Sequence record: PP301342.1
Strand: one strand, 5' to 3'
DNA: 64,000 bases
Source of the DNA: Escherichia phage UE-M3
Shown here: one piece after another, positions 5 to 63,915 of the stretch
Layout of the letters: the number at the start of each line of letters is the position of its first letter
How positions within the stretch are numbered: position 1 is the first letter of the stretch
Program-made: the position numbers and the translations under genes
The notes under the pieces: model-generated
Seen by the model: only the letters and a program-made list of their open reading frames with translations
Databases searched by the model: none
What the model was told of the DNA's origin: nothing

Positions 5-2359
5 ATGAACGAAATGTTCTCACAAGGTGGTAAAGGCTCCACTGGTATTCTTACCAACAAACAAGCCATTGCCCGTAAGTTTGGTGTTAAGCAGAATGAG
101 GTTGTTTACTTTGCTGTAGGTGTAGACTTAGGGGAATACAAGGTCATTTATGATAAGACTACCCAGCGAGCTTACTCATTACCTGCAGACCTTGGTTCAG
201 GGGTTACTGCTGTAAGCCTTAATACTGCCGGTGTGTTAGTTCACTCTACTGGTAATGTTGACCTGGGTGCACTAGCTGTTTCACGAGGAGAGTTTATAAC
301 AGTCCCTGGGTCCTTCTCTTTGGGTTATGAGATTAAAGTAAAGAATGAATGTCTTGAATACCAGGGTGGGTTGTATCGATGGGATGGCGCACTGCCAAAG
401 GTTGTAGATGCTGGGTCTGTTCCTGATATTGGTACAGGAAAGTGGCTGAGCGTCGGTGATGCAGCCCTGCGCAGCCAGATTTCAGACCCGGATGGTGCGT
501 CCAGTTACCCTGAATTGCAGATGGCAAGATGGCGTGATGAGGGTGATGTTCGAGGCTGGGGTGCTAAAGGGGATGGTGTAACAGATAGTACGGAGAATAT
601 AGCTGCTTCACTAAATTCTCAAAAAGCTGTCGTAGCATCAGACGGTGTATTCTCTAGTTCTGGTATTAATAGTAATTACTGTAACTTAGACGGTAGAGGC
701 AGTGGTGTACTAAGTCACCGTTCAAGTACAGGTAACTACTTAGTATTTAACAATCTACGCTCAGGTCGCTTAAGTAATATTACGGTAGAAAGTAATAAGG
801 CGACCGATACCACTCAAGGGCAGCAGGTATCTCTTGCTGGTGGCAGTGATGTTACTATAAGTGATGTTAATTTCTCAAACGTTAAGGGCGCTGGTTTCAG
901 TTTAATCACATACCCTAATGATGCACCCTCTGATGGGCTTATGATTAAAGGCATTCGAGGTAGCTACTCCGGCTATGCTACTAATAAGGCGGCTGGATGC
1001 ATACATGCTGATTCCTCGGTTAACTCCCTCATAAATAACGTCATTGCTAAGAACTACCCTCAGTTCGGGGCTGTAGAACTGAAAGGTACAGCCAGTTATA
1101 ACATAGTCAGCAATGTTATAGGGGCAGACTGCCAGCATGTAACTTACAACGGTACAGAAGGGTCAATAGCTCCCTCTAACAACCTTATCAATGGGGTAGT
1201 GGCTAATAATCCTAAATATGCAGCGGTTGTTGCAGGCAAAGGTAGTACCAACTTAATCTCAGATGTGCTTGTAGATTTCTCAATCTCTGACGCTAGTCAG
1301 GCTCACGGTGTTACAGTAGAAGGCTCTGATAACGTAATAAGCAATGTGCTTATGTCAGGATGTGATGGTACTAACTCTTTAGGGCAAGCTCAAACTGCTA
1401 CAATTGCGCGCTTTATAGATACAGCTAATAACAACTATGCGTCTGTATTTCCTAGCTACAGTGCTACAGGTGTTATTACTTTCGAATCAGGTTCTACCCG
1501 TAACTTCGTAGAGGTAAAGCATCCGGGAAGGAGAAACGACCTTCTCAGTGCTACTGGTACTATTGAAGGTGCAGTTACTATTGACGGCACTAGTAATAGC
1601 AACGTAGTGCACGCACCTGCCTTAGGACAGTACATAGGTAGTATGTCAGGTCGGTTCGAATGGCGGATTAAGTCCATGTCACTTCCGTCAGGCGTTCTTA
1701 CCTCGGCTGATAAATACAGAATGCTTGGGGATGGTGCTGTGTCATTAGCTGTAGGCGGGGGTACTTCTTCTCAAGTTCGCCTATTTACTTCTGATGGTAC
1801 TTCTCGGAAAGTATCACTCACCAACGGTAACGTGCGTCTTCCTACCAGTAGCACAGGTTATTTGCAGTTAGGTTCTGATGCAATGACCCCAGATAGTACT
1901 AATACATACGCATTAGGTTCCGCAAGTAGAGCATGGTCTGGCGGTTTTACTCAATCAGCATTCACTGTTGTCTCAGATGCTAGGGATAAAACAGAGCCTC
2001 TTAATATCTCAGATGCTTTACTGGATGCTTGGTCTGAAGTTGACTTTGTGCAGTTTCAGTACTTGGACAGGATTGAGGAGAAGGGTGCAGACTCAGCCAG
2101 ATGGCACTTTGGTATCATCGCTCAGCGAGCTAAGGAGGCTTTCGAACGTCACGGCATAGATGCACATCGCTATGGCTTCCTGTGCTTCGACAGTTGGGAT
2201 GATGTATATGAGGAAGATGCCAATGGCTCTCGTAAACTGATTACACCAGCAGGTTCCCGCTACGGTATTCGTTACGAGGAAGTACTGATATTAGAAGCTG
2301 CGTTGATGCGGCGTACTATTAAGCGTATGCAGGAAGCATTAGCTGTTATGTCTAAGTGA
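5..2359 (+). CDS. Tail fibre/tailspike, probably 5-prime truncated at window edge; C-terminal intramolecular chaperone (peptidase S74-like) domain from ~1973
   Basis: 784-aa ORF; repetitive beta-helix-like Gly/Asn/Ser/Thr-rich core; C-terminal SDARDK...WHFGIIAQRAKEAF motif typical of self-cleaving chaperone domains of endosialidase/L-shaped tail fibres; open frame continues to position 2. Confidence 0.7.
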   Translation: MNEMFSQGGKGSTGILTNKQAIARKFGVKQNEVVYFAVGVDLGEYKVIYDKTTQRAYSLPADLGSGVTAVSLNTAGVLVHSTGNVDLGALAVSRGEFITVPGSFSLGYEIKVKNECLEYQGGLYRWDGALPKVVDAGSVPDIGTGKWLSVGDAALRSQISDPDGASSYPELQMARWRDEGDVRGWGAKGDGVTDSTENIAASLNSQKAVVASDGVFSSSGINSNYCNLDGRGSGVLSHRSSTGNYLVFNNLRSGRLSNITVESNKATDTTQGQQVSLAGGSDVTISDVNFSNVKGAGFSLITYPNDAPSDGLMIKGIRGSYSGYATNKAAGCIHADSSVNSLINNVIAKNYPQFGAVELKGTASYNIVSNVIGADCQHVTYNGTEGSIAPSNNLINGVVANNPKYAAVVAGKGSTNLISDVLVDFSISDASQAHGVTVEGSDNVISNVLMSGCDGTNSLGQAQTATIARFIDTANNNYASVFPSYSATGVITFESGSTRNFVEVKHPGRRNDLLSATGTIEGAVTIDGTSNSNVVHAPALGQYIGSMSGRFEWRIKSMSLPSGVLTSADKYRMLGDGAVSLAVGGGTSSQVRLFTSDGTSRKVSLTNGNVRLPTSSTGYLQLGSDAMTPDSTNTYALGSASRAWSGGFTQSAFTVVSDARDKTEPLNISDALLDAWSEVDFVQFQYLDRIEEKGADSARWHFGIIAQRAKEAFERHGIDAHRYGFLCFDSWDDVYEEDANGSRKLITPAGSRYGIRYEEVLILEAALMRRTIKRMQEALAVMSK

Positions 2360-3565: not shown

Positions 3566-3810
3566 AAAGAAAAGTAGAGTTAGTACCTAACTGGAAAAGG
3601 TGTTGGAAGTGGGCATCCATTCAGATTAGTACACTTGGTTTAGTTCTATTTTCCGCTATAGATATTATCCAACCAATGGTGACAGGATTACCTCGTCACA
3701 TCTTGGAAGATATTCCCCATGGTTCCAATATTGCAATCGCACTGTTTGCCTTAAACATCATAGGCAGATTAATACGATTCCGACCAAAGGAAGATTCACA
3801 TGAAAGCTAA
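3550..3810 (+). CDS. Holin candidate (two predicted TM helices)
   Basis: ATG at 3550 in frame of ORF 3484..3810; hydrophobic segments ISTLGLVLFSAIDII and IAIALFALNIIGRLI; overlaps endolysin start. Confidence 0.45.
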   Translation: MVRRLKRKVELVPNWKRCWKWASIQISTLGLVLFSAIDIIQPMVTGLPRHILEDIPHGSNIAIALFALNIIGRLIRFRPKEDSHES

Positions 3811-4435
3811 ACAGAAACTTGCTGCAAAAGGTGGTGCAGTGGGAGGGGTTATCGCTGCTATTCTGGGGGCAGTGTTCTATATGGAAGGAGGTTATGTAAA
3901 CAATCCTCGTGACCCAGGTGGGGAAACTAATCATGGTATTACCCAATCAGTAGCTAAGACTCATAAAGAAGTTCTGGCTACTGAGTATGGTTGGGATGGT
4001 TCTATGAAGGGTTTATCTAAAGAGATGGCTGCTGAGATATACATTGATGACTATGTACTTAAACCTAACTTCGTAGCCTTCGCTGATATATCTCCTGCTG
4101 TAACGCATAAGCTAGTAGATGCTGGTGTTAATACTGGTGTAACCCGTCCTGCTAAGTGGTTGCAGATGTCTCTTAATGAAATGTCACGTAATGGCAAAGA
4201 CTACCCTAAAATACAGGTTGATGGTAAAGTCGGTACAAGTACTGTTAATGCATATAAAGCATTACAGAAAAAACGGGGCAAAGTTGCAGCATGTCAGGTA
4301 ATGATTAAGCTGCTTGATGCTAAACAACTGAACCACTATACCTCATTAAACATGCCAGACTTTACGTATGGTTGGGTAGCTAACCGAATAGGCAATGTGC
4401 CACTGGAGGCATGTAATGAAGATGCTAATCTCTAA
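3800..4435 (+). CDS. Endolysin, GH108-type N-acetylmuramidase, with Gly/Ala-rich weakly hydrophobic N-terminus (possible SAR signal)
   Basis: GGYVNNPRDPGGETNHGIT motif characteristic of GH108; AAGGAAG Shine-Dalgarno upstream of ATG 3800; size as recalled for N4 gp61 (208 aa). Confidence 0.8.
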   Translation: MKAKQKLAAKGGAVGGVIAAILGAVFYMEGGYVNNPRDPGGETNHGITQSVAKTHKEVLATEYGWDGSMKGLSKEMAAEIYIDDYVLKPNFVAFADISPAVTHKLVDAGVNTGVTRPAKWLQMSLNEMSRNGKDYPKIQVDGKVGTSTVNAYKALQKKRGKVAACQVMIKLLDAKQLNHYTSLNMPDFTYGWVANRIGNVPLEACNEDANL

Positions 4436-4922
4436 AGGTTGGCCTTATCTTCTGGTGGTGGTCCTTGGGGCCACCATTTACTTTTGGGGCAATTCCAATG
4501 GGCAGTCTACTGTTCAAAAGAAATGGGATGCCCAAAAGGTCGAAGACCAAAAGGCAACGCAAAAATTACAGGACAAATACAATGCTCTCCAAAGAAACCA
4601 TAGTTATGAAGTCGGGTTACTCACTTCCCGGTTGCAGACGGCTGAGAGTAATTACGCAAGCGAGCTTGCTCGCGTTAGCAGTGATTACGACAGCCGGATG
4701 CAACAGTCTGAAAGACGAGCATCGGTATATAAACGTCAAGCCGAAGCCGGAACCCTTGAGTGCAGAAGTCTTGCAAGCCATGCAGCCAGACTCGACAATA
4801 GTCTTGAAGAAGGCAGACGTTTGGTTGAAGAACTCCGGGCAACTGTTAGACTCCGTGACAGCCAACTAATTGAGTTGGGTAAACAGATTCAGGCTGACCG
4901 TAAACTTTTTGAACAGGAATAA
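4416..4922 (+). CDS. i-spanin (Rz-like): N-terminal TM anchor then coiled-coil periplasmic domain
   Basis: ATG 4416 with GGAGG 6 nt upstream; [19 protein letters not shown]; Q/E/R-rich helical remainder; position immediately after endolysin. Confidence 0.6.
4606..4869 (+). CDS. o-spanin (Rz1-like) lipoprotein embedded in +1 frame inside the i-spanin gene
   Basis: Frame +1 ORF wholly inside 4416..4922; signal-like [32 protein letters not shown] with lipobox-like TAGC then Pro-rich mature part; alternative start 4582. Confidence 0.5.
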   Translation: MKSGYSLPGCRRLRVITQASLLALAVITTAGCNSLKDEHRYINVKPKPEPLSAEVLQAMQPDSTIVLKKADVWLKNSGQLLDSVTAN

Positions 4923-4924
4923 CT

Positions 4925-7195
4925 ATGGAACACCAAGACACTTTTAAGCCTTTACCAGACCCGGCTCAATCAGAGAAGTTAACGGACTGGAAGAAGGAAC
5001 CAAGTATCCAATTACTGAAGGGTGATTTGGAATCTGCTAAACCTGCTCACGATGCAATCATGGCACAGATTCGTGAGTGGAATGATTTAATGGAAGTAAA
5101 GGGTAAGGCTAAACCCCCAAAGGTTAAGGGACGCTCGCAAGTCCAGCCTAGACTGGTTCGCCGTCAGGCAGAGTGGCGTTATGCTCCATTGTCTGAACCA
5201 TTCCTCTCGTCTAACAAACTATTTAAGGTAACTCCGGTTACTTTTGAAGATGAGTTAGCTGCACGCCAGAATGAGCTAGTTCTTAACTACCAATTCCGTA
5301 CTCAGCTTAATAAAGTAAAACTGGTAGATGATTACGTGCATAGTGTCGTAGATGACGGTACTGGTATTGCTCGTATTGGTTGGGAACGTAAGACAGTTAA
5401 GATTAAAACAGAAACACCAGTCTTCCAGTTGTACCCAATTGAGAACCAGGAACAAGCAGATATTCTTCAGCAGGCTTTGCAGCTTCAGGCAGAGAATCCT
5501 CGTGAGTATGATGAAACGATGCCAGAAGATATTAAGGAAGCTGTTAACTACTTCAATGAAACTGGAGAAGCTACTTATGCAATTCAGACAGGGGTCACTG
5601 AAGTAGAAGTAGAAAAAGCACTGGTTAACAGACCTACCGTTGAAATGCTTAATCCTAATAACGTAGTTATTGACCCAAGCTGTAATGGTGATTTGGACAA
5701 GGCTCTTTATGCAGTCATCTCATTTGAGACTTGTAAAGCAGACCTCATGAAAAACAAGGACCGTTACCACAACCTGGATAAGATTGACTGGGAAAGTTCC
5801 AGTCCTATGACTGACCCAGACCATGAAAGTAAAACTCCAGGTGACTTCCAGTTTAAGGATGCACTTCGCAAGAAAGTAATTGCTTATGAGTACTGGGGAT
5901 TCTACGACATTAACGATGATGGTTCGCTGGAACCAATTGTTGCTACCTGGATTGGTTCTACTCTTATTCGTATGGAGAAGAACCCATTCCCAGATGGTAA
6001 GTTACCATTGGTAGTTGTTCCTTATATGCCTCGTAAACGTGAACTCTATGGTGAAGCTGATGCTGAATTGCTAGGAGATAACCAAGCAATTCTTGGTGCA
6101 ACCATGCGTGGGATGATTGACCTGTTGGGCCGAAGTGCAAATGGTCAACGTGGTTATCCTAAAGGGATGTTAGATACCCTGAACCGTCGTCGATACGATG
6201 ATGGACAAGACTACGAATATAACCCAATGCAGGGCAATCCTAGTCAGGCCATTATGGAACACAAGTTCCCTGAGTTACCCCAGTCGGCAATAGTAATGAC
6301 TCAGATGCAAAACCAGGAAGCAGAAGCACTAACGGGTGTTAAAGCATTCTCGGGTGGTGTAACTGGTGAAGCTTACGGAGATGTAGCTGCTGGTATTCGT
6401 GGTGTACTAGATGCAGCATCCAAACGTGAGATGGCAATCCTTCGTCGATTAGCTAAGGGTATGGCAGACATTGGTACTAAGATTTGTGCAATGAATGCTG
6501 TGTTCTTATCTGAGAAAGAAGTAGTACGTATTACTAACGAGCAGTACGTAGAGATTAACCGTGAAGACCTTAAAGGTAATTTCGACATTGAAGTTGATAT
6601 TAATACTGCTGAGATTGATAACCAGAAATCCCAGGACTTGAGCTTCATGGTTCAAACGTTAGGTAATACGGTTGACCAGACTATTACGTTATCTCTTGTA
6701 GCTAAGATTGCAGAACTTAAACGTATGCCAGACCTTGCTCATGAGTTACGTACATGGCAACCACAACCAGACCCTATGGAAGAACAGCTTAAGCAATTGG
6801 CAATTCAGAAAGCACAGCTTGAGAACGAAGAGCTGCAAAGTAAGATTGCACTCAATATGGCTAAGGCTAAAGAGGCTGCTTCTAGTGGTGACCTTAAAGA
6901 TCTGGATTATCTGGAACAGGAATCTGGTACTAAACATGCTCGTGACATGGAAAAACAAAAAGCACAATCCCAAGGAAACCAAAACCTTCAGATAACTAAG
7001 GCGTTGACAACACCTACTAAAGAAGGTGAAACTACCCCCAACATATCTGCTGCTGTTGGATATAACGCTTTGACTAACGGGAACTCTATACCAGAACGTG
7101 ACTTAGCTGCACAACAAGACCCAGCTTATTCACTTAGTTCCCAATTCTATGACCCTAGCCAAGACCCAGCATCGGCTCTTGGCATGAACTTGTAA
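4925..7195 (+). CDS. Portal protein
   Basis: 756 aa, AGGA Shine-Dalgarno; size and position (upstream of capsid gene) match N4 gp59-like portal as recalled (~760 aa). Confidence 0.75.
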
Positions 7196-56179: not shown

Positions 56180-57397
56180 TTAACTTAATGCATAATCTGT
56201 TTCTAGAATGTCTTGCCAGAGGCTGTCATCCAGCTTACCAGCAGAGAACTCTTGTCCCAGTACTTGAGACAGAATGAAGCCCAGTAAGTCACTCTTAGCA
56301 ATGTCAGACAGAATCTGATTGTACTGACGACGCAGGTCATTACCATAGTTAGGGTGGCAACGGAAGCAATCATGTACAGTCATTACAGGGAATGGTTTCT
56401 TAGGCATAGTGTCGATCATATCTGCTACTACTTGACGGTCTACCAATGCAATAGTATTCGGGTCAAGGAAGTCTAGGATAGACAGCGACAGGAATCCTGA
56501 CCTTTCATAATGATTCCAGATTTCCATAGTCTTCTCTTGGTTCCCCTCAATAACGGGGTATTCACTTGGCCCGATATCGCACAGTTCCCGTACATAGGCA
56601 ACCAGTTTAGGGTCGAAGTTACAACGACGTAGCATCTCACGTACTACCATCCCATCAATAGAGTGAGTGATGTTAGCAGAGAGCATACGGGTCTTCTCTT
56701 CAGTACCCTGAACCATACGAGTGATGTCAAATGGTTTACCCAAGAAGTTAACAGTCTGTACTTCAAGAACCATGACTTTAATGACAGCATGGAAGTTGTC
56801 AGGGAGTACCCATATGTAACGGTTAGCATCCGGGTTACCACATTGCAGTAAGAACTTGTTAAGTGCCCAAGGACCACTTGCAACTGTTTCCATTACATTT
56901 TCAAAAGTCTTGAGACGGATACCTTCCCCGAATACTTCTTTAGGTTTGGCTTCTGAACCGTAGAATGCAGTCATAACTGCCTGCTTGGTATCACTACGTT
57001 TAATACGGGATGCTTCACCAAGGATGTCCAGCATCTTGTGATATATAACTGTATAAGCATCACGTCGTAATGGCTTACCATTCTCTCCCATGTAATTAAC
57101 TACGTTACACAGTTCAGCAGCAGAGCGGTCACCAGTCAGGCAGGCCAGTAACTGCAAGCCTGATGATGTAGCATCCAGGGCTACGGCATATCCGATAGGC
57201 TTACCAGCTTTCATATCTTTCCATGCGTTTACACCAGCATAGAACAGTGCAGATTCCTCAGCTTCATCTACCAGATTAAGCAAGTTAGCTTCATTCTCAT
57301 CGAACCAAGCAATACGCTCATCCCAGGTCTTTTTATCCAGACCATAGTTATTGGCGATGTCTACTTTCAGGTATTCTTTAGCGGTTAACAGTTGCAT
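56180..57397 (-). CDS. Phage RNA polymerase II catalytic subunit (T7-like single-subunit RNAP palm/fingers)
   Basis: Track start 57478 overlaps HNH gene; ATG 57397 has AAGGA Shine-Dalgarno giving 405 aa (N4 p7 recalled ~404 aa); motifs VALDATSSGLQ, KQAVMTAFYGS, TVHDCF. Confidence 0.75.
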   Translation of the reverse strand: MQLLTAKEYLKVDIANNYGLDKKTWDERIAWFDENEANLLNLVDEAEESALFYAGVNAWKDMKAGKPIGYAVALDATSSGLQLLACLTGDRSAAELCNVVNYMGENGKPLRRDAYTVIYHKMLDILGEASRIKRSDTKQAVMTAFYGSEAKPKEVFGEGIRLKTFENVMETVASGPWALNKFLLQCGNPDANRYIWVLPDNFHAVIKVMVLEVQTVNFLGKPFDITRMVQGTEEKTRMLSANITHSIDGMVVREMLRRCNFDPKLVAYVRELCDIGPSEYPVIEGNQEKTMEIWNHYERSGFLSLSILDFLDPNTIALVDRQVVADMIDTMPKKPFPVMTVHDCFRCHPNYGNDLRRQYNQILSDIAKSDLLGFILSQVLGQEFSAGKLDDSLWQDILETDYALS

Positions 57398-57443
57398 TTT
57401 ATGTTCCTTAGCGTCTGAGCCATTTGGCTCGCATAGTGGGTAG

Positions 57444-57950
57444 TTATTGACCGTGACGGTTAGTATAGCCAGCACCATTCTGGTTCAAGGCTTCTAACAT
57501 GTCGGCTCGTGCATCACATGCTTGTTGGAATGCGAACTCGTAGCCGTATTTCTTAACTGAGAATACTTTACACCTCTGTTTCTTTGTGATGTTGTCCGTA
57601 CATGTAGCACGCCAGAATAACCCCTTTGGTGAATCCCATAGAGATACACCAGTTACCCCAGATTTATTGTCTGAACGTTTAGTAGAGTTACGCAGGTTGA
57701 CTACAATGGGAACACATCGCAAGTTACACCAGCGGCAGTCCGTTCTGATACCGTTGATGTGGTCAATTGTATAACCAGCAGGGATAGATCTATGCTTCAT
57801 TTCCCACAACCAACGGTGAAGGTATAAGATTTTATTTCCACGAGAGATGCGAATGTACCCAGTGGCACTATTCGCTGCCTCCGGTGGATGGGCTACAGCA
57901 AGTTCATCAACTGACTTGTTCCAGTAGCCCATTGGCATACGCTCTTTCAT
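57444..57950 (-). CDS. HNH homing endonuclease with AP2-like domain, inserted between the two RNAP II subunit genes
   Basis: 168 aa; IDHINGIRTDCRWCNLR HNH motif and SGVTGVSLWDSPKGLFWRA AP2-like; start overlaps upstream stop. Confidence 0.75.
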   Translation of the reverse strand: MKERMPMGYWNKSVDELAVAHPPEAANSATGYIRISRGNKILYLHRWLWEMKHRSIPAGYTIDHINGIRTDCRWCNLRCVPIVVNLRNSTKRSDNKSGVTGVSLWDSPKGLFWRATCTDNITKKQRCKVFSVKKYGYEFAFQQACDARADMLEALNQNGAGYTNRHGQ

Positions 57951-58768
57951 TAATCCTCATTAACAAGTTCTTTTTCTGCAAATTCTAGGACTGCTTTATT
58001 CCAAGAAGTCCCTTGGTAGTTACAGTGATAGCCCTGAGCGTAAGTACGCCCACGTTTGTCATATTTGTGACCCAGTGAGAAGTTATTACCTTCTTTGGTC
58101 ACTAACTCCATTACTTCCTTAGCAGTACGGCTGTACTTCTCAAAGGCTTTAACACGTTTCTCATATTCCTGACGGGTTTCACCCTCTTTGGGCTTATCCA
58201 TATTAGGACGAGAGTCTTTTACATAGTTAGCAACGTCCCAGTTGATACTTAGACGCTGATTATTCATACGGTTGATGTGATCAAGACAGACATCCATCTC
58301 ATGATGGTTCTTCTTGAGGATGATACTTCCCCTGCTCTCGTAGTAACCTGTATCACGGTTACACAGAACAGGCTTAGGAGCACTTACGATAGGTAATGGA
58401 TACTGGAATGCTTCCAGTTCCATCTGAACATCTTCACTAATCTCGTAGATAACACCGAACTTGTCGATGGTAGGGTCATAGTTGAAGCAGTCATTCTCTG
58501 CCATCTTATACAGACAGTCAGCGATGTACTGAGCATCATCTGAATGGCTCATAAGAGAGCCAATCATAGTCTGAAGGTCAGCACGTTTATGTAGGGCAAT
58601 CTGCACCATTGCATCAATGAGCAGCTTATAATCAATTTCCAAATAGGCAGCGAATGCCTTAAAGTCAATTTCTTCGGAGTCCTCAAATTCCTTCCTCATG
58701 CGAGGGAGTAATTGATTTTTGTTGAAAAGAATTTCGAGTTGCTTCTGATGTTCAATGGATGAGTACAT
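57950..58768 (-). CDS. Phage RNA polymerase II small subunit (N-terminal-domain-like)
   Basis: 272 aa (N4 p4 recalled ~269 aa); AGGAGA Shine-Dalgarno; directly downstream of hairpin promoter. Confidence 0.55.
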   Translation of the reverse strand: MYSSIEHQKQLEILFNKNQLLPRMRKEFEDSEEIDFKAFAAYLEIDYKLLIDAMVQIALHKRADLQTMIGSLMSHSDDAQYIADCLYKMAENDCFNYDPTIDKFGVIYEISEDVQMELEAFQYPLPIVSAPKPVLCNRDTGYYESRGSIILKKNHHEMDVCLDHINRMNNQRLSINWDVANYVKDSRPNMDKPKEGETRQEYEKRVKAFEKYSRTAKEVMELVTKEGNNFSLGHKYDKRGRTYAQGYHCNYQGTSWNKAVLEFAEKELVNED

Positions 58769-58790: not shown

Positions 58791-58816
58791 TAATAACCAA
58801 AAGCTGCGGAGCAGCT
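58791..58816 (-). promoter_or_regulatory. Hairpin promoter of N4 virion-RNAP type (P3-like), driving the RNAP II operon
   Basis: agctgc-GGA-gcagct 6-bp stem / 3-nt GGA loop preceded by aaccaaa; 34 nt upstream of gene start 58768. Confidence 0.6.
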
Positions 58817-59084: not shown

Positions 59085-59435
59085 TTAACTCCAGTAGTTG
59101 TAAGCATCGCCTAAGTGTTTACGCCATGCTTCGGGTAACAGTACATTTCCGGTTACATTAATGAACTGGTATGGGTCCAGGTAGTCATTACTCATGACTT
59201 TGAAATCCCATTGTGGATTGGCAGATGCATAAGCAATAAAGCCCTCAATGAAGCCATAGATAGCACCCTCTTTGATACGGTTACCATTGCCATCTCTTAC
59301 TGGAATAGCAAAGCTATTACCATAATGACCATAGGCCATACCCCAACGAGCACCATGCTTCTTATAAGCTAACTTGGCAGAAGCATTGGTATGTTGTCCT
59401 AGTGTATTGGTAGTGAATACGAATATTTCTTTCAT
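59085..59435 (-). CDS. Early hypothetical protein
   Basis: 116-aa ORF. Confidence 0.45.
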   Translation of the reverse strand: MKEIFVFTTNTLGQHTNASAKLAYKKHGARWGMAYGHYGNSFAIPVRDGNGNRIKEGAIYGFIEGFIAYASANPQWDFKVMSNDYLDPYQFINVTGNVLLPEAWRKHLGDAYNYWS

Positions 59436-59438
59436 TAG

Positions 59439-59819
59439 TTACCCCTTTGGATTCTCCACAAAGTAGTTATACATAGCTTTTACTAGCTTCTCTTTAATAA
59501 CCTCACCATGACATGGTTTCGGATAACAGAAGCACTGTAAGGCCAACCCTTTCTCATCAATGGCTTTATTACCAAGACGATTAAGTTCATCCAATACAGC
59601 TTGATTCTTCCTCATGATTTGTTCATTAAGCCATACTCGATATTTGGTTATAACCTGTTCTCTTGAACCGTCTTTACCAATAACGAATGGATTTCCTAAT
59701 GGTGAACCACGTCCGATATACTCACCGGATTTACCGTGATGTTTATTAACAATGATAATTGGACGTGCAGCTACACCCAGCAAAGCATTGGTGTCGTCCC
59801 CTAATGTAATAGTCTTCAT
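59439..59819 (-). CDS. DUF4326-like protein (GNPF and C-x-P-x-x-CHG motifs)
   Basis: 126 aa; GRGSPLGNPFVIG and CYPKPCHG. Confidence 0.45.
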   Translation of the reverse strand: MKTITLGDDTNALLGVAARPIIIVNKHHGKSGEYIGRGSPLGNPFVIGKDGSREQVITKYRVWLNEQIMRKNQAVLDELNRLGNKAIDEKGLALQCFCYPKPCHGEVIKEKLVKAMYNYFVENPKG

Positions 59820-60058
59820 GGTTTTAATGCCTCAATAGATGTACTTACTTTACATACAGTAGTTCCTTCTAATGCGTCTATTTTGTAAGCTAACCCTCTT
59901 GTTAACATTACCCCGTTCATTACTTTATTAACCTCTTCTAGGTTAGGTACAGAAAATGCTTCATTTAATACGGGAGTTGTATGCCAATCTATATAATCAT
60001 CCGGCATAGCTATAAAATCATCCCCCTTTTTGAATACATAATATTCTTCATAAATCAT
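59816..60058 (-). CDS. Small early hypothetical protein
   Basis: 80-aa ORF, 4-nt overlaps both sides. Confidence 0.45.
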   Translation of the reverse strand: MIYEEYYVFKKGDDFIAMPDDYIDWHTTPVLNEAFSVPNLEEVNKVMNGVMLTRGLAYKIDALEGTTVCKVSTSIEALKP

Positions 60059-60369
60059 GGCTTAAGTACCTGGAATGCGAACACAGGACGTTTACTACGC
60101 CACTGGTTCATAGCTAGTTCACTAGTTTCAGAACCATCATGTAAGTCATAAATGAATGAGATTACATAGTCTGGTTCTTCCGGGAAGTTCTCTGTAGAGA
60201 ATGGTAGACCTGATTCTTTAAGGATAGGAACCAGTGGAGATTCAGCATTGCAGTAGAGGGTAAATTCTTCATTGAATGCCTGGCTTGTTTGAGATACATA
60301 ATCAATATTACGCATCATTTTATCTACATCTGTAAATGTAGAATCATGAACTACTAGAATAGTTTTCAT
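60055..60369 (-). CDS. Early hypothetical protein
   Basis: 104-aa ORF, coupled overlaps. Confidence 0.45.
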   Translation of the reverse strand: MKTILVVHDSTFTDVDKMMRNIDYVSQTSQAFNEEFTLYCNAESPLVPILKESGLPFSTENFPEEPDYVISFIYDLHDGSETSELAMNQWRSKRPVFAFQVLKP

Positions 60370-60620
60370 ACCTTTCTCAATGTCCCATAGATGTTATTAT
60401 CGACAATACTCAAATCACAAAAACCAATTTCTTCTTGTCTCCCAGAGGATACCCAGATATTGTTTTCTGTTAGCTTAGGCTTCTTAGAGAATCCTATTAA
60501 TGAGGTATTAGCACTTTTATATTGACGTGGTAATAAAGCTATATACTTAACCCAGTGAGGTACTTGAATGGTGTGCTTCATATATTCCACAGTCTTGCCT
60601 GTAGGATATGTAATAATCAT
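60366..60620 (-). CDS. Early hypothetical protein
   Basis: 84-aa ORF. Confidence 0.45.
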   Translation of the reverse strand: MIITYPTGKTVEYMKHTIQVPHWVKYIALLPRQYKSANTSLIGFSKKPKLTENNIWVSSGRQEEIGFCDLSIVDNNIYGTLRKV

Positions 60621-60977
60621 TTAGTACCTCACAACGTATACGGGTTTATTAAGCCTATACATGATATCAATCATGTGCTTGGTTCCTTTGGAATTACCAT
60701 CCCAGAAACATACAGCAGCATCTGCAAATTCACCCATTTCCAGGTTACGTTTATAACCAGCACATTTACCATGTTTATCCCAGTTTGCTGGGAAATTATG
60801 AATAGGCATTTTGTTATTAGCCCATAGACTATATGCAAGCATATCTGCTCCACGAGCCATACCACATACTAATTCCGGACATTCAGGTATATTCCCTGAA
60901 TTTACTAACTTCTGTAATTCCTCAATCATAAGATTGGTATTTACGAAGTCTCTTCCACCAGCTACGATTAGTCTCAT
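60621..60977 (-). CDS. SLOG/DprA-like Rossmann-fold protein (DUF2493-like)
   Basis: 118 aa; LIVAGGRDF...LVCGMARGADMLAYSLWA resembles DprA/LOG-like nucleotide-binding loop. Confidence 0.4.
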   Translation of the reverse strand: MRLIVAGGRDFVNTNLMIEELQKLVNSGNIPECPELVCGMARGADMLAYSLWANNKMPIHNFPANWDKHGKCAGYKRNLEMGEFADAAVCFWDGNSKGTKHMIDIMYRLNKPVYVVRY

Positions 60978-61195
60978 TTCTGATACCCCTGTATATAGTT
61001 AATACGGCGAATACGTTGAGTAGATGCCTTAACAGCCATCTGTTGATTTTCTTCTTTACGCTGGTTTTCCAACAGCTTATCCCATTCTTTCTGGTTCCGT
61101 TGTTTCTGTAATATACGACTACAACGCTTATGATTAGCAACTCCTTTACGTTTGTTACATACAGGGCAAACACCATAATCAGTTGAGTACATCAT
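60974..61195 (-). CDS. Small basic Cys-containing protein (possible zinc ribbon)
   Basis: 73 aa; CPVCNKRKGVANHKRC. Confidence 0.4.
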   Translation of the reverse strand: MMYSTDYGVCPVCNKRKGVANHKRCSRILQKQRNQKEWDKLLENQRKEENQQMAVKASTQRIRRINYIQGYQK

Positions 61196-61196
61196 T

Positions 61197-61442
61197 TTAG
61201 TTGAATCCGTAATAGTTAAAGTAAGGAGCCTTTCTGTCTTCAGTTGATTTGATAATCACTGATTCATCTAGAAAGTACATCTCATTATTAATACGTACTT
61301 CTCTGTAAGATAACTTACCAAAGTTACGTATATATACCTTTCTAACATATACCTTACGGGTATGCTTTAGCATGAACCAGGCATACCCTTTGGGATTTAC
61401 TAATATTGTTTTATCTACGATGACATCACTAAGATTGTTCAC
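61197..61442 (-). CDS. Small early hypothetical protein
   Basis: 81-aa ORF. Confidence 0.45.
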   Translation of the reverse strand: MNNLSDVIVDKTILVNPKGYAWFMLKHTRKVYVRKVYIRNFGKLSYREVRINNEMYFLDESVIIKSTEDRKAPYFNYYGFN

Positions 61443-61743
61443 CGAGTGCCTCCATCAGTATTTTACGAATAACGTTAACATCAGATTCAGTACCAATTAA
61501 ACCAACAGGTTTACCTGTACTATCAGTTACAAAGCCAGCAATCCTTTCCATCTCTGCTGTAATTAACTTGTCACCATTAATAAGACGATTACGAAGGTAA
61601 GCTTCATAAGCTACCTCTATATCTTCTACTGTGGTTCTTTCATTACGAGCAAATGGATTACTTAATGGGAATGGTAAATGTACCCGTATATTCCTGTCAG
61701 CTACTTTAGCTTGGTGAGGAAGTATACATACTATTTCATTCAA
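61429..61743 (-). CDS. Early protein with NPF motif resembling N-terminus of the DUF4326-like protein
   Basis: 104 aa; PFPLSNPFARNERTTVEDIEVAYEAYLRNRL parallels GSPLGNPFVIGKDGSREQVITKYRVWLNEQI of 59439..59819. Confidence 0.4.
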   Translation of the reverse strand: MNEIVCILPHQAKVADRNIRVHLPFPLSNPFARNERTTVEDIEVAYEAYLRNRLINGDKLITAEMERIAGFVTDSTGKPVGLIGTESDVNVIRKILMEALGEQS

Positions 61744-61779: not shown

Positions 61780-61818
61780 CAAAAATAAAAAATAGGAGCC
61801 TCCTATTGGAGGACTCCT
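61780..61818 (-). terminator. Rho-independent terminator (minus strand), imperfect stem
   Basis: aggagcctcc-tatt-ggaggactcct with A-rich run on + side. Confidence 0.45.
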
Positions 61819-61820
61819 TA

Positions 61821-61949
61821 CTATTTGATACATGGATGATTGTAAGTAACAATCTTACGTACTGGTTCAGATGTCTGTTGCTTAGCAGCCAGACGTTCCT
61901 TCATCTTCTGTACGTCAGCTTTGGTTCCCATGATTAATGACTTACGCAT
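61821..61949 (-). CDS. Small ORF (42 aa) with Shine-Dalgarno, below track cutoff
   Basis: ATG 61949 with GGAG 8 nt upstream; basic peptide MRKSLIMGTKADVQKMKERLAAKQQ...; just downstream of tandem repeat. Confidence 0.3.
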   Translation of the reverse strand: MRKSLIMGTKADVQKMKERLAAKQQTSEPVRKIVTYNHPCIK

Positions 61950-62680: not shown

Positions 62681-62712
62681 GTTAAAAATAAAAGACTCCC
62701 CGAAGGGAGTCT
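62681..62712 (-). terminator. Rho-independent terminator (minus strand)
   Basis: agactccc-cgaa-gggagtct stem with gttaaaaataaa on + side. Confidence 0.6.
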
Positions 62713-63210: not shown

Positions 63211-63234
63211 CATCCATAAGACGCGGAGCGTCTT
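63211..63234 (-). promoter_or_regulatory. Hairpin promoter of N4 virion-RNAP type (P2-like)
   Basis: catccat-aagacgc-GGA-gcgtctt: 7-bp stem, GGA loop, conserved CCATAA flank; closely resembles recalled N4 early promoter CATCCAAAAGAAGCGGAGCTTCTT. Confidence 0.65.
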
Positions 63235-63890: not shown

Positions 63891-63915
63891 CATGTCCATA
63901 ACATGCGGAGCATGT
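63891..63915 (-). promoter_or_regulatory. Hairpin promoter of N4 virion-RNAP type (P1-like)
   Basis: catgtccata-acatgc-GGA-gcatgt: 6-bp stem, GGA loop, CCATAA flank. Confidence 0.6.

Follow-up and report, generated by a model that had tools for sequence, protein, structure and literature searches.

A canonical DUF4326 protein and its cysteine-less homolog in the left-end gene block of an N4-like coliphage

Among phages, N4 is a classic model, and most genes at its left end, gp3 to gp14, have no assigned function. The corresponding region of Escherichia phage UE-M3 (PP301342.1), analyzed here within a stretch of 64,000 nucleotides (the window), carries two small open reading frames (ORFs), ORF A (59439..59819) and ORF B (61429..61743). 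A reading made from the sequence alone had described them as paralogous early proteins sharing an NPF-containing N-terminal motif, the first carrying and the second lacking a Cys-His element typical of DUF4326. Are the two proteins truly related, and what might such a protein do once this element is gone? The reading that we favor, with a probability of roughly 0.6, is that ORF A would be a Cys-dependent phosphoesterase acting on a ribose-linked phosphate and that ORF B would be a pseudoenzyme with a non-catalytic role of its own.

The window was assigned to Gamaleyavirus (G7C/N4-like coliphages), with both ORFs in the left-end region of the genome, and its segment 58800-62000 showed 100% nucleotide identity to Escherichia phage UE-S5a (Schitoviridae, Enquatrovirinae, Gamaleyavirus). 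The coordinates proposed by the sequence-only reading were exact for both ORFs. It had given no strand; plus-strand translations of both ranges were riddled with stops, and the genes lie on the minus strand. ORF A starts with ATG and encodes a 126-amino-acid (aa) protein, the ortholog of N4 gp12 (85% identity over 127 aa), whereas ORF B starts with TTG, 7 nucleotides after the Shine-Dalgarno sequence AGGAGA, and encodes 104 aa, the ortholog of N4 gp9 (73% identity over 101 aa). GenBank labels them "DUF4326 domain-containing protein" and "hypothetical protein," respectively.

DUF4326 homology and the Cys-His loop

ORF A is an ordinary, already annotated DUF4326 member. The Pfam model PF14216 (DUF4326) matched it over profile positions 4 to 82 of 82 (E = 1.4e-22; 80.6 bits, cutoff 25), confirming the family assignment made from the sequence alone. 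ORF A also matched phrog_464 (E = 4e-37) and, weakly, DUF488-N3a, a DUF488 subfamily model (E = 0.17); a "RapZ-C-DUF488-DUF4326 clade" was reportedly described by Burroughs and Aravind in 2023. The conserved N-terminal DUF4326 motif reads GRGSPLGNPF (residues 36-45; 59685..59714, minus strand). The predicted active-site loop, CFCYPKPCHG (residues 96-105; 59505..59534, minus strand), joins the last strand to the last helix and holds the only three cysteines of the protein (C96, C98, and C103). Across 83 diverse DUF4326 sequences, C96, C98, P100, C103, and H104 were invariant, R37, S39, L41, N43, and P44 were invariant or nearly so, and R53 was a further nearly invariant polar residue. Judged by sequence, C98-x5-H104 appears to match the CX5R P-loop of phosphatases in spacing, with His in place of Arg; a canonical C-X5-R P-loop was thus found neither in ORF A nor in ORF B, which has no loop at all.

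For ORF B, the PF14216 score was 15.7 bits (E = 0.024), under the gathering cutoff of 25, and a BLASTP comparison of ORF A with ORF B gave 23% identity over 52 residues (E = 2e-6). Such figures would be in keeping with a chance resemblance around the NPF motif between proteins of unrelated folds. Deeper comparisons, however, spoke otherwise. An hhalign comparison of the ORF B family profile with the diverse 83-sequence DUF4326 alignment gave 99.1% (E = 1.4e-18) over 102 columns, i.e., the whole protein, superseding the 88.5% over 58 columns obtained with a shallow ORF A alignment. PHROG 464 already groups ORF B with DUF4326 proteins, since phrog_464 takes in ORF B (E = 4.3e-15) as it does ORF A. 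An exhaustive HMMER search of 1.84 billion representative proteins with the ORF B family profile returned only 16 matches; beyond ORF B's own cluster and two more Cys-less clusters, the nearest outside relatives were canonical DUF4326 proteins with CxCxPKxCHGD (E = 1.5e-8 to 1e-6). Conversely, a hidden Markov model (HMM) of the diverse DUF4326 set picked up every ORF B ortholog (E = 1e-10 to 1e-13). With a full-length hhalign match, a shared PHROG, a profile search reaching DUF4326 at E = 1e-8, and structure models that matched the same fold neighbors (see below), the probability of chance resemblance is negligible. True homology of ORF B and the absence of the Cys-His element, both suggested by the sequence-only reading, are borne out, and the outcome that it had named as a refutation, an insignificant motif with unrelated folds, was not what we found.

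The alignment located what ORF B had kept and what it had lost. The PLSNPF segment (residues 26-31; 61651..61668, minus strand) is the retained part of the N-terminal motif, and the VAYEAYLRN stretch occupies residues 44-52. In place of CxCxPxxCHG, ORF B has PVGLIGTESD (residues 79-88; 61480..61509, minus strand), the site of a 4-residue deletion: the canonical strand, C-x-C-x-P-x-x-C-H-G, and helix aligned with "GLI----GTESD" in ORF B and in the proteins related to it. The three Cys and the His were all lost, no Cys/His motif was present at the C terminus, and R37, S39, and R53 (ORF A numbering) were replaced by L23, F25, and V39. Of the DUF4326 features, only the PLxNPF segment, one Tyr, and the hydrophobic core remain. 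In the ORF B family, 29 columns were invariant (25 sequences, down to 54% identity, from four phage genera), and the family-specific invariant residues include R17, N18, R20, H22, E35, R36, D58, and E64. The Cys-less state is rare, because C.C.P..CH was kept in 105/105 of a diverse DUF4326 sample; among the 1.84 billion proteins searched, there were three Cys-less representatives. Since ORF B scores under the Pfam threshold and has no Cys/His motif, listing it as a functional DUF4326 enzyme would be wrong. As a DUF4326 homolog, it fits the pseudophosphatase concept, with the fold kept, the catalytic residues lost, and purifying selection on the gene. As a separate observation, P0001, a 121-aa ORF B homolog on a 1.8-kb metagenomic contig, carried a 19-residue tandem duplication of the NIRVHLPFPLSNPF segment, which may reflect either an error of assembly or a genuine internal repeat.

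AlphaFold2 models were confident for both proteins, with a predicted local distance difference test score of 92.5 for ORF A and 93.9 for ORF B and a predicted template modeling score of 0.86 each, and their secondary-structure elements followed in identical order. In the ORF A model, an 8-residue loop (97-104) connected the last strand (92-96) to the last helix (105-122), whereas in the ORF B model strand 80-83 led almost directly into helix 86-99. Both predicted structures showed a RapZ-C/PTP-like phosphatase fold, and the features of the rhodanese-phosphatase (Cys-phosphatase) superfamily were found, with a Rossmannoid α/β fold and the active-site loop, deleted in ORF B, between a central strand and the next helix. 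The best solved structural neighbor of the ORF A model was the C-terminal domain (CTD) of RapZ. For ORF B, the neighbors were PTEN (6.2), RapZ-CTD (6.0), and DUSPs (around 5), and the pseudophosphatases auxilin, STYX, and STYXL1 were also found. In a viral structure library, the top matches of ORF B were DUF4326 proteins of Achromobacter N4-like and Vibrio phages, and a 212-aa DUF2493(SLOG)-DUF4326 fusion was among the matches. The published classification of DUF4326 as a divergent clade within the rhodanese-phosphatase superfamily (PMC9503650) is consistent with these folds.

Retention and history of the cysteine-less form

Is ORF B then a gene with a function, or one that is decaying? The loss of the loop with all catalytic residues would suit a functionless remnant of a duplicated DUF4326 gene, and ORF B has also evolved faster than ORF A, with a nonsynonymous divergence (dN) between the window and N4 of 0.238 versus 0.093. 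The ratios of nonsynonymous to synonymous divergence (dN/dS), which are rough because dS is saturated, were nevertheless similarly low in the two genes: 0.085 (window-N4) and 0.076 (window-KP8) for ORF B, with about 0.08-0.15 within Enquatrovirinae, and 0.082 and 0.066, respectively, for ORF A. ORF B was found in 94 phage records, only in N4-like phages, of Escherichia, Shigella, Klebsiella, and Erwinia, and it was intact with a good Shine-Dalgarno site in every genome examined. Given also the 29 invariant positions, the new family-specific invariant residues, and its presence where the active copy is lost, we already disfavored the decaying remnant and hold it to be very improbable.

That presence was examined in 17 ORF B loci (16 from IMG/VR plus Erwinia phage Kuerle). 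An active DUF4326 gene was found in 13 of them and was not detected by HMM in any six-frame ORF of the sampled region in the other four (L023, L024, L025, and L029). The maintenance of ORF B thus does not depend on the active enzyme, which argues against a purely regulatory-subunit role as well as against a dead remnant. Purifying selection acts on the ORF B gene, and the active paralogue is not needed for it. In phosphatase families, the pairing of a pseudoenzyme with an enzyme is common, and ORF B could accordingly be pictured as acting on ORF A in a regulatory or dominant-negative way, for instance in a heterodimer, without a function of its own. The 13/17 loci that carry both forms would fit, as would Kuerle, where the two genes are adjacent and overlap. 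The 4/17 loci without a detectable active form do not, nor does Erwinia phage Frozen, which has the active form only, or the window itself, with ~1.6 kb and six ORFs between the two genes. On balance, a pure partner role seems quite unlikely, and the existence of B-only genomes led us to reject regulation of ORF A by ORF B as the main model.

Gene order around the two forms was conserved, running gp2 ... gp9 ... gp11-like, gp12 (DUF4326), ..., gp14 (A1S_2505 family), and RNAP1. Both forms are present in the window, with a YAcAr-type SLOG gene between them, and in N4 (EF056009; gp9 and gp12), where the SLOG gene is absent. In Klebsiella phage KP8, both are present and the SLOG gene immediately follows the Cys-less form; Frozen carries the SLOG gene and one copy of the active form, without the Cys-less one. 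Kuerle, which also has the SLOG gene, was the only phage in which the Cys-less form adjoins the active gene, lying directly after and overlapping it (L005; active DUF4326 at 3737..4171, Cys-less paralogue at 4146..4439). Such an arrangement would be expected after a tandem duplication. The Kuerle active protein was also seen to have a Cys-rich N-terminal extension of ~40 residues (MQCKCKKGYKSTWDNLCANC...), which is zinc-ribbon-like.

In a bootstrapped neighbor-joining tree, the Cys-less forms grouped in one clade (88%), all with the same deletion; the active sister lineage of this clade was not resolved. The loss was shown to have happened once, in the ancestor of the enterobacterial N4-like phages. 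A metagenomic protein of 99 aa, P0169, has no cysteines and retains a full-length loop (LLYLNPRGHNHAE). It was sister to the Cys-less gp9 clade with 96.5% bootstrap support and may represent a stage preceding the loop deletion. The 16 matches of the ORF B profile search did not include the cluster of ORF A itself, and the two window genes are therefore old paralogues. This search, the ~23% identity, and the tree led us to reject a recent duplication of ORF A as the origin of ORF B. Of the paralogous pair proposed from the sequence alone, the homology thus stands, while recent duplication does not, ORF B belonging to an old monophyletic Cys-less N4 gp9 lineage.

Neighboring genes and transcriptional setting

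Between ORF B and ORF A, the window encodes an N4 gp11-like protein (GenBank "antirepressor"; 60055..60369, minus strand), which was present in 17/17 ORF B loci. Its gene lay upstream of the active DUF4326 gene wherever the latter was present (N4, KP8, Frozen, and Kuerle), and the two were immediate neighbors in most loci; in the window, one small ORF separates it from ORF A. One gp11-like ortholog weakly matched the YAcAr SLOG model (E = 0.0047), and hhalign against the window SLOG protein gave 3.6%, which is colinear and not significant. From these sequence comparisons, the gp11-like protein may be a degenerate SLOG paired with DUF4326. The window SLOG protein itself (60621..60977, minus strand; 118 aa) is labeled "DprA" in GenBank. 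We rejected the label "DNA processing protein DprA," as PF10686 (E = 2.5e-10) identified a YAcAr-type SLOG domain; its invariant residues are R77-N78 ... G98-T99-x-H101.

Downstream of ORF A lies an A1S_2505-family gene (59085..59435, minus strand; NF049995, E = 1e-23), the ortholog of N4 gp14, which was present in 16/16 ORF B loci reaching far enough. The window copy is a degenerate allele, in which TTNTLGQHTNASA stands in place of the Gly-rich "GSNxAGxHGAGAA" loop and most of the conserved TR(V/I)GCG(L/I)AG motif is lost through an 8-residue deletion. The degenerate 116-aa allele (86-94% identity) was also found in L014, L015, L017, and L020, whereas L016, L018, and L019 carry the canonical allele of ~123 aa (48% identity), as N4 gp14 does. 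Depositors labeled A1S_2505 orthologs "ADP-ribosylglycohydrolase," a label that a TARG1-like macro domain would suit, and hhalign of the family against an approximate TARG1 macro sequence gave 24.6%, centered on RIGCGL. Pfam returned no match for the family, and the searched literature contained nothing relevant to its function. When the PDB was searched by sequence, no meaningful match was obtained for the ORF A profile, the SLOG protein, or the A1S_2505 protein and family profile, and PADLOC gave no significant match for the six proteins compared. Farther downstream, a 168-aa HNH homing-endonuclease ORF (57444..57950, minus strand) sits between the RNAPII subunit genes RNAP1 (57950..58768) and RNAP2 (56180..57478), overlapping both; the insert is annotated likewise in UE-S5a and is absent in N4 and KP8.

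The sequence-only reading had placed both ORFs among early genes, and the left-end setting held up: both are flanked, on their own strand, by the hairpin early promoters of the gp2-like gene and RNAP1. The N4-type hairpin early-promoter core (GCTCCGCNNNNTNTGG), with GCTCCGC in the loop/stem followed by TNTGG, occurred in three exact copies against 0.44 expected by chance, all intergenic and on the minus strand. These precede the gp1-like gene (63896..63911), the gp2-like gene (63214..63229), and RNAP1 (58797..58812, at the downstream end of the ORF A/ORF B block). The second is the nearest recognizable promoter upstream of ORF B and ORF A, and the full 22-nucleotide site around it (63213..63234) matched an annotated early promoter of KP8 at every position. 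Strong terminator-like hairpins with T-runs were found on the minus strand just after the gp2-like gene (62693..62712) and immediately upstream of ORF B (about 61799..61821), and the region held nine terminator-like sites against 2.9 expected. Expression of the two ORFs would therefore need read-through or an unrecognized promoter, and the arrangement suggests that transcription of the block is segmented and read-through-dependent. From position only, we infer early timing for ORF A and ORF B.

Predicted functions and comparison with known systems

How might the two proteins act? In the reading that we favor, ORF A would be a cysteine-dependent phosphoesterase or phosphotransferase, in which C98 would probably be the nucleophile and H104 would occupy the place of the P-loop Arg of PTPs, and its substrate would be a phosphate borne by the ribose of a nucleotide, of an ADP-ribose derivative, or of a product of their breakdown. 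It would be produced early in infection, alongside the SLOG and A1S_2505 proteins, and may reshape or neutralize a host nucleotide-derived metabolite or signal. ORF B would be unable to form the phosphate-binding cradle, so that it most likely works through binding, its putative partner being a host protein or an anionic ligand contacted via the surface of its family-specific invariant residues (R17 to E64, listed above). A stronger version, in which ORF B is a stand-alone anti-defence or host-takeover binder and the first recognized pseudoenzyme of the DUF4326/RapZ-C clade, is speculative and unlikely. If it were true, ORF B could be a sponge or decoy for a nucleotide- or ADP-ribose-derived signal, using its Arg/His-rich surface, or could dock to a host protein or RNA as RapZ-CTD does, and its persistence without the active enzyme would reflect a function that evolved after catalysis was given up.

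An anti-defence role would be plausible. The idea of anti-defence or nucleotide signaling, also raised by the sequence-only reading, comes from gene context and from published comparative-genomic prediction (PMC9503650, PMC7824862), in which DUF4326 belongs to viral SLOG/Macro/NADAR networks and occurs in fusions with SLOG, Macro, and NADAR (PMC9503650). In amoeba viruses, moreover, homologs of ORF83, an anti-Avs SLOG protein, carry a C-terminal DUF4326 (10.1101/2025.06.06.658234).

Elsewhere, DUF4326 keeps other company. DUF4326 genes directly abut ribonucleotide reductase (RNR) genes of three classes, rather than ADP-ribose-processing genes, and such adjacency was seen in 5/40 evenly sampled tblastn matches. 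The cases include nrdA-nrdB-DUF4326 in the Klebsiella T4-like phage PTP25, nrdD-DUF4326 in the jumbo coliphage Turkey5, and a class II RNR, BFD ferredoxin, DUF4326, and then dUTPase/DCD on a 208-kb metagenomic jumbo-phage contig (L007), with DUF4326 at 3971..4300 (L012, nrdA-nrdB), 4019..4348 (L013, nrdD), and 6001..6306 (L007, class II). The PHROG/GenBank label "ribonucleotide reductase NrdA-like" on some DUF4326 proteins is probably a misnomer derived from this adjacency. The L007 contig also encodes, at 530..805 and ~5 kb upstream of DUF4326, a protein of the Acb2/Tad1-hairpin family (PF24729, an anti-CBASS/anti-Thoeris sponge family). On the strength of the RNR contexts, ORF A might instead be an enzyme of dNTP-pool metabolism, tied to ribonucleotide reduction and supplying DNA precursors rather than countering defence. 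We consider this possible though somewhat unlikely, as the window contains no homologs of RNR, dUTPase/DCD, or dCMP deaminase, the N4-like setting of DUF4326 is a left-end block with SLOG and A1S_2505 genes, and the published fusions are to SLOG, Macro, and NADAR. The dNTP and anti-defence readings need not exclude each other, both implying ribose-phosphate chemistry, and the SLOG-type and RNR contexts both point to the chemistry of phosphorylated ribose.

DUF4326 might also act on nucleic-acid termini or on modified DNA or RNA, by removing terminal or 2'-phosphates or by processing ends, in repair or anti-restriction, with ORF B as a non-catalytic nucleic-acid binder. Fusions of DUF4326 to DNA replication and restriction-modification components (Iyer et al. 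2021) speak for this, as do the match of ORF A to phrog_30585, a "DNA repair protein" (E = 8.5e-9), the baculovirus RNA 5'-phosphatase and PIR1 phosphatase among the fold neighbors of ORF B, the Arg/His-rich character of the ORF B family-specific invariant residues, and a Sphingobium phage match (H48) under a gene annotated polA. Most DUF4326 members are, however, stand-alone proteins of ~100 aa, and no nucleic-acid-binding domain or motif was detected, so that we rate an action on nucleic acids as improbable.

Several points weigh against the phosphoesterase-pseudoenzyme reading as well. ORF A lacks the canonical CX5R Arg, and active DUF4326 sequences were part of the multiple sequence alignment behind the ORF B model, which is thus not an independent test of the fold. 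The SLOG gene was present in 6/17 ORF B loci and is missing from N4, terminator-like hairpins stand between the nearest early promoter and both ORFs, and the saturation of dS leaves the selection estimates rough. The RNR neighborhoods count on the same side, and no biochemical or genetic data on DUF4326, N4 gp12, or N4 gp9 were found in the literature searched; DUF4326 proteins are not known to counter Avs or any other defence.

The result is a matter of annotation and hypothesis and does not reveal a new type of system. DUF4326 occurs in >1,100 sequenced phages and in giant viruses. N4 gp12 now falls in a family of predicted ribose-phosphate-processing enzymes, and gp9 can be described as conserved, derived from the same fold, and catalytically dead; we did not find gp9 described as a Cys-less DUF4326 derivative in the searched literature. 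Together, the enzyme and the pseudoenzyme offer a natural pairing through which the role of DUF4326 might be worked out.

Compared with DUF4326 (PF14216) at large, ORF A is typical in its GRxSPLGNPF and CxCxPxxCH motifs, its length within ~100-130 aa, and its being a stand-alone phage protein. ORF B shares with the family the fold, PLxNPF, the two central helices, and the C-terminal helix, but differs in having neither the loop nor any of the conserved polar residues, besides its score under the Pfam gathering cutoff. Compared with N4, the order of genes is the same, the window adding a YAcAr SLOG gene between the two DUF4326 homologs and having a degenerate gp14 where that of N4 is canonical. 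To the RapZ CTD (PDB 5O5S and 5O5Q), sequence identity was only 11-14%, and the PDB sequence search with the ORF A profile detected no sequence-level relationship; RapZ is, moreover, a two-domain tetrameric RNase E adaptor, unlike ORF A and ORF B. The PTP/DUSP pseudophosphatases (STYX, STYXL1, and the PTEN-like domains of auxilin and tensin) usually keep the P-loop backbone and often bind phospho-ligands, whereas ORF B has part of the loop deleted, so that the relation is one of analogy and superfamily fold. Finally, compared with the SLOG-DUF4326 fusions and ORF83 (10.1101/2025.06.06.658234), the window SLOG is unfused and shares a block with the two DUF4326 homologs. Its R77-N78 ... T99-x-H101 residues appear to resemble, at the sequence level, the R-N ... 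T-x-D/S AMP site of ORF83 and its Tunisvirus homolog.

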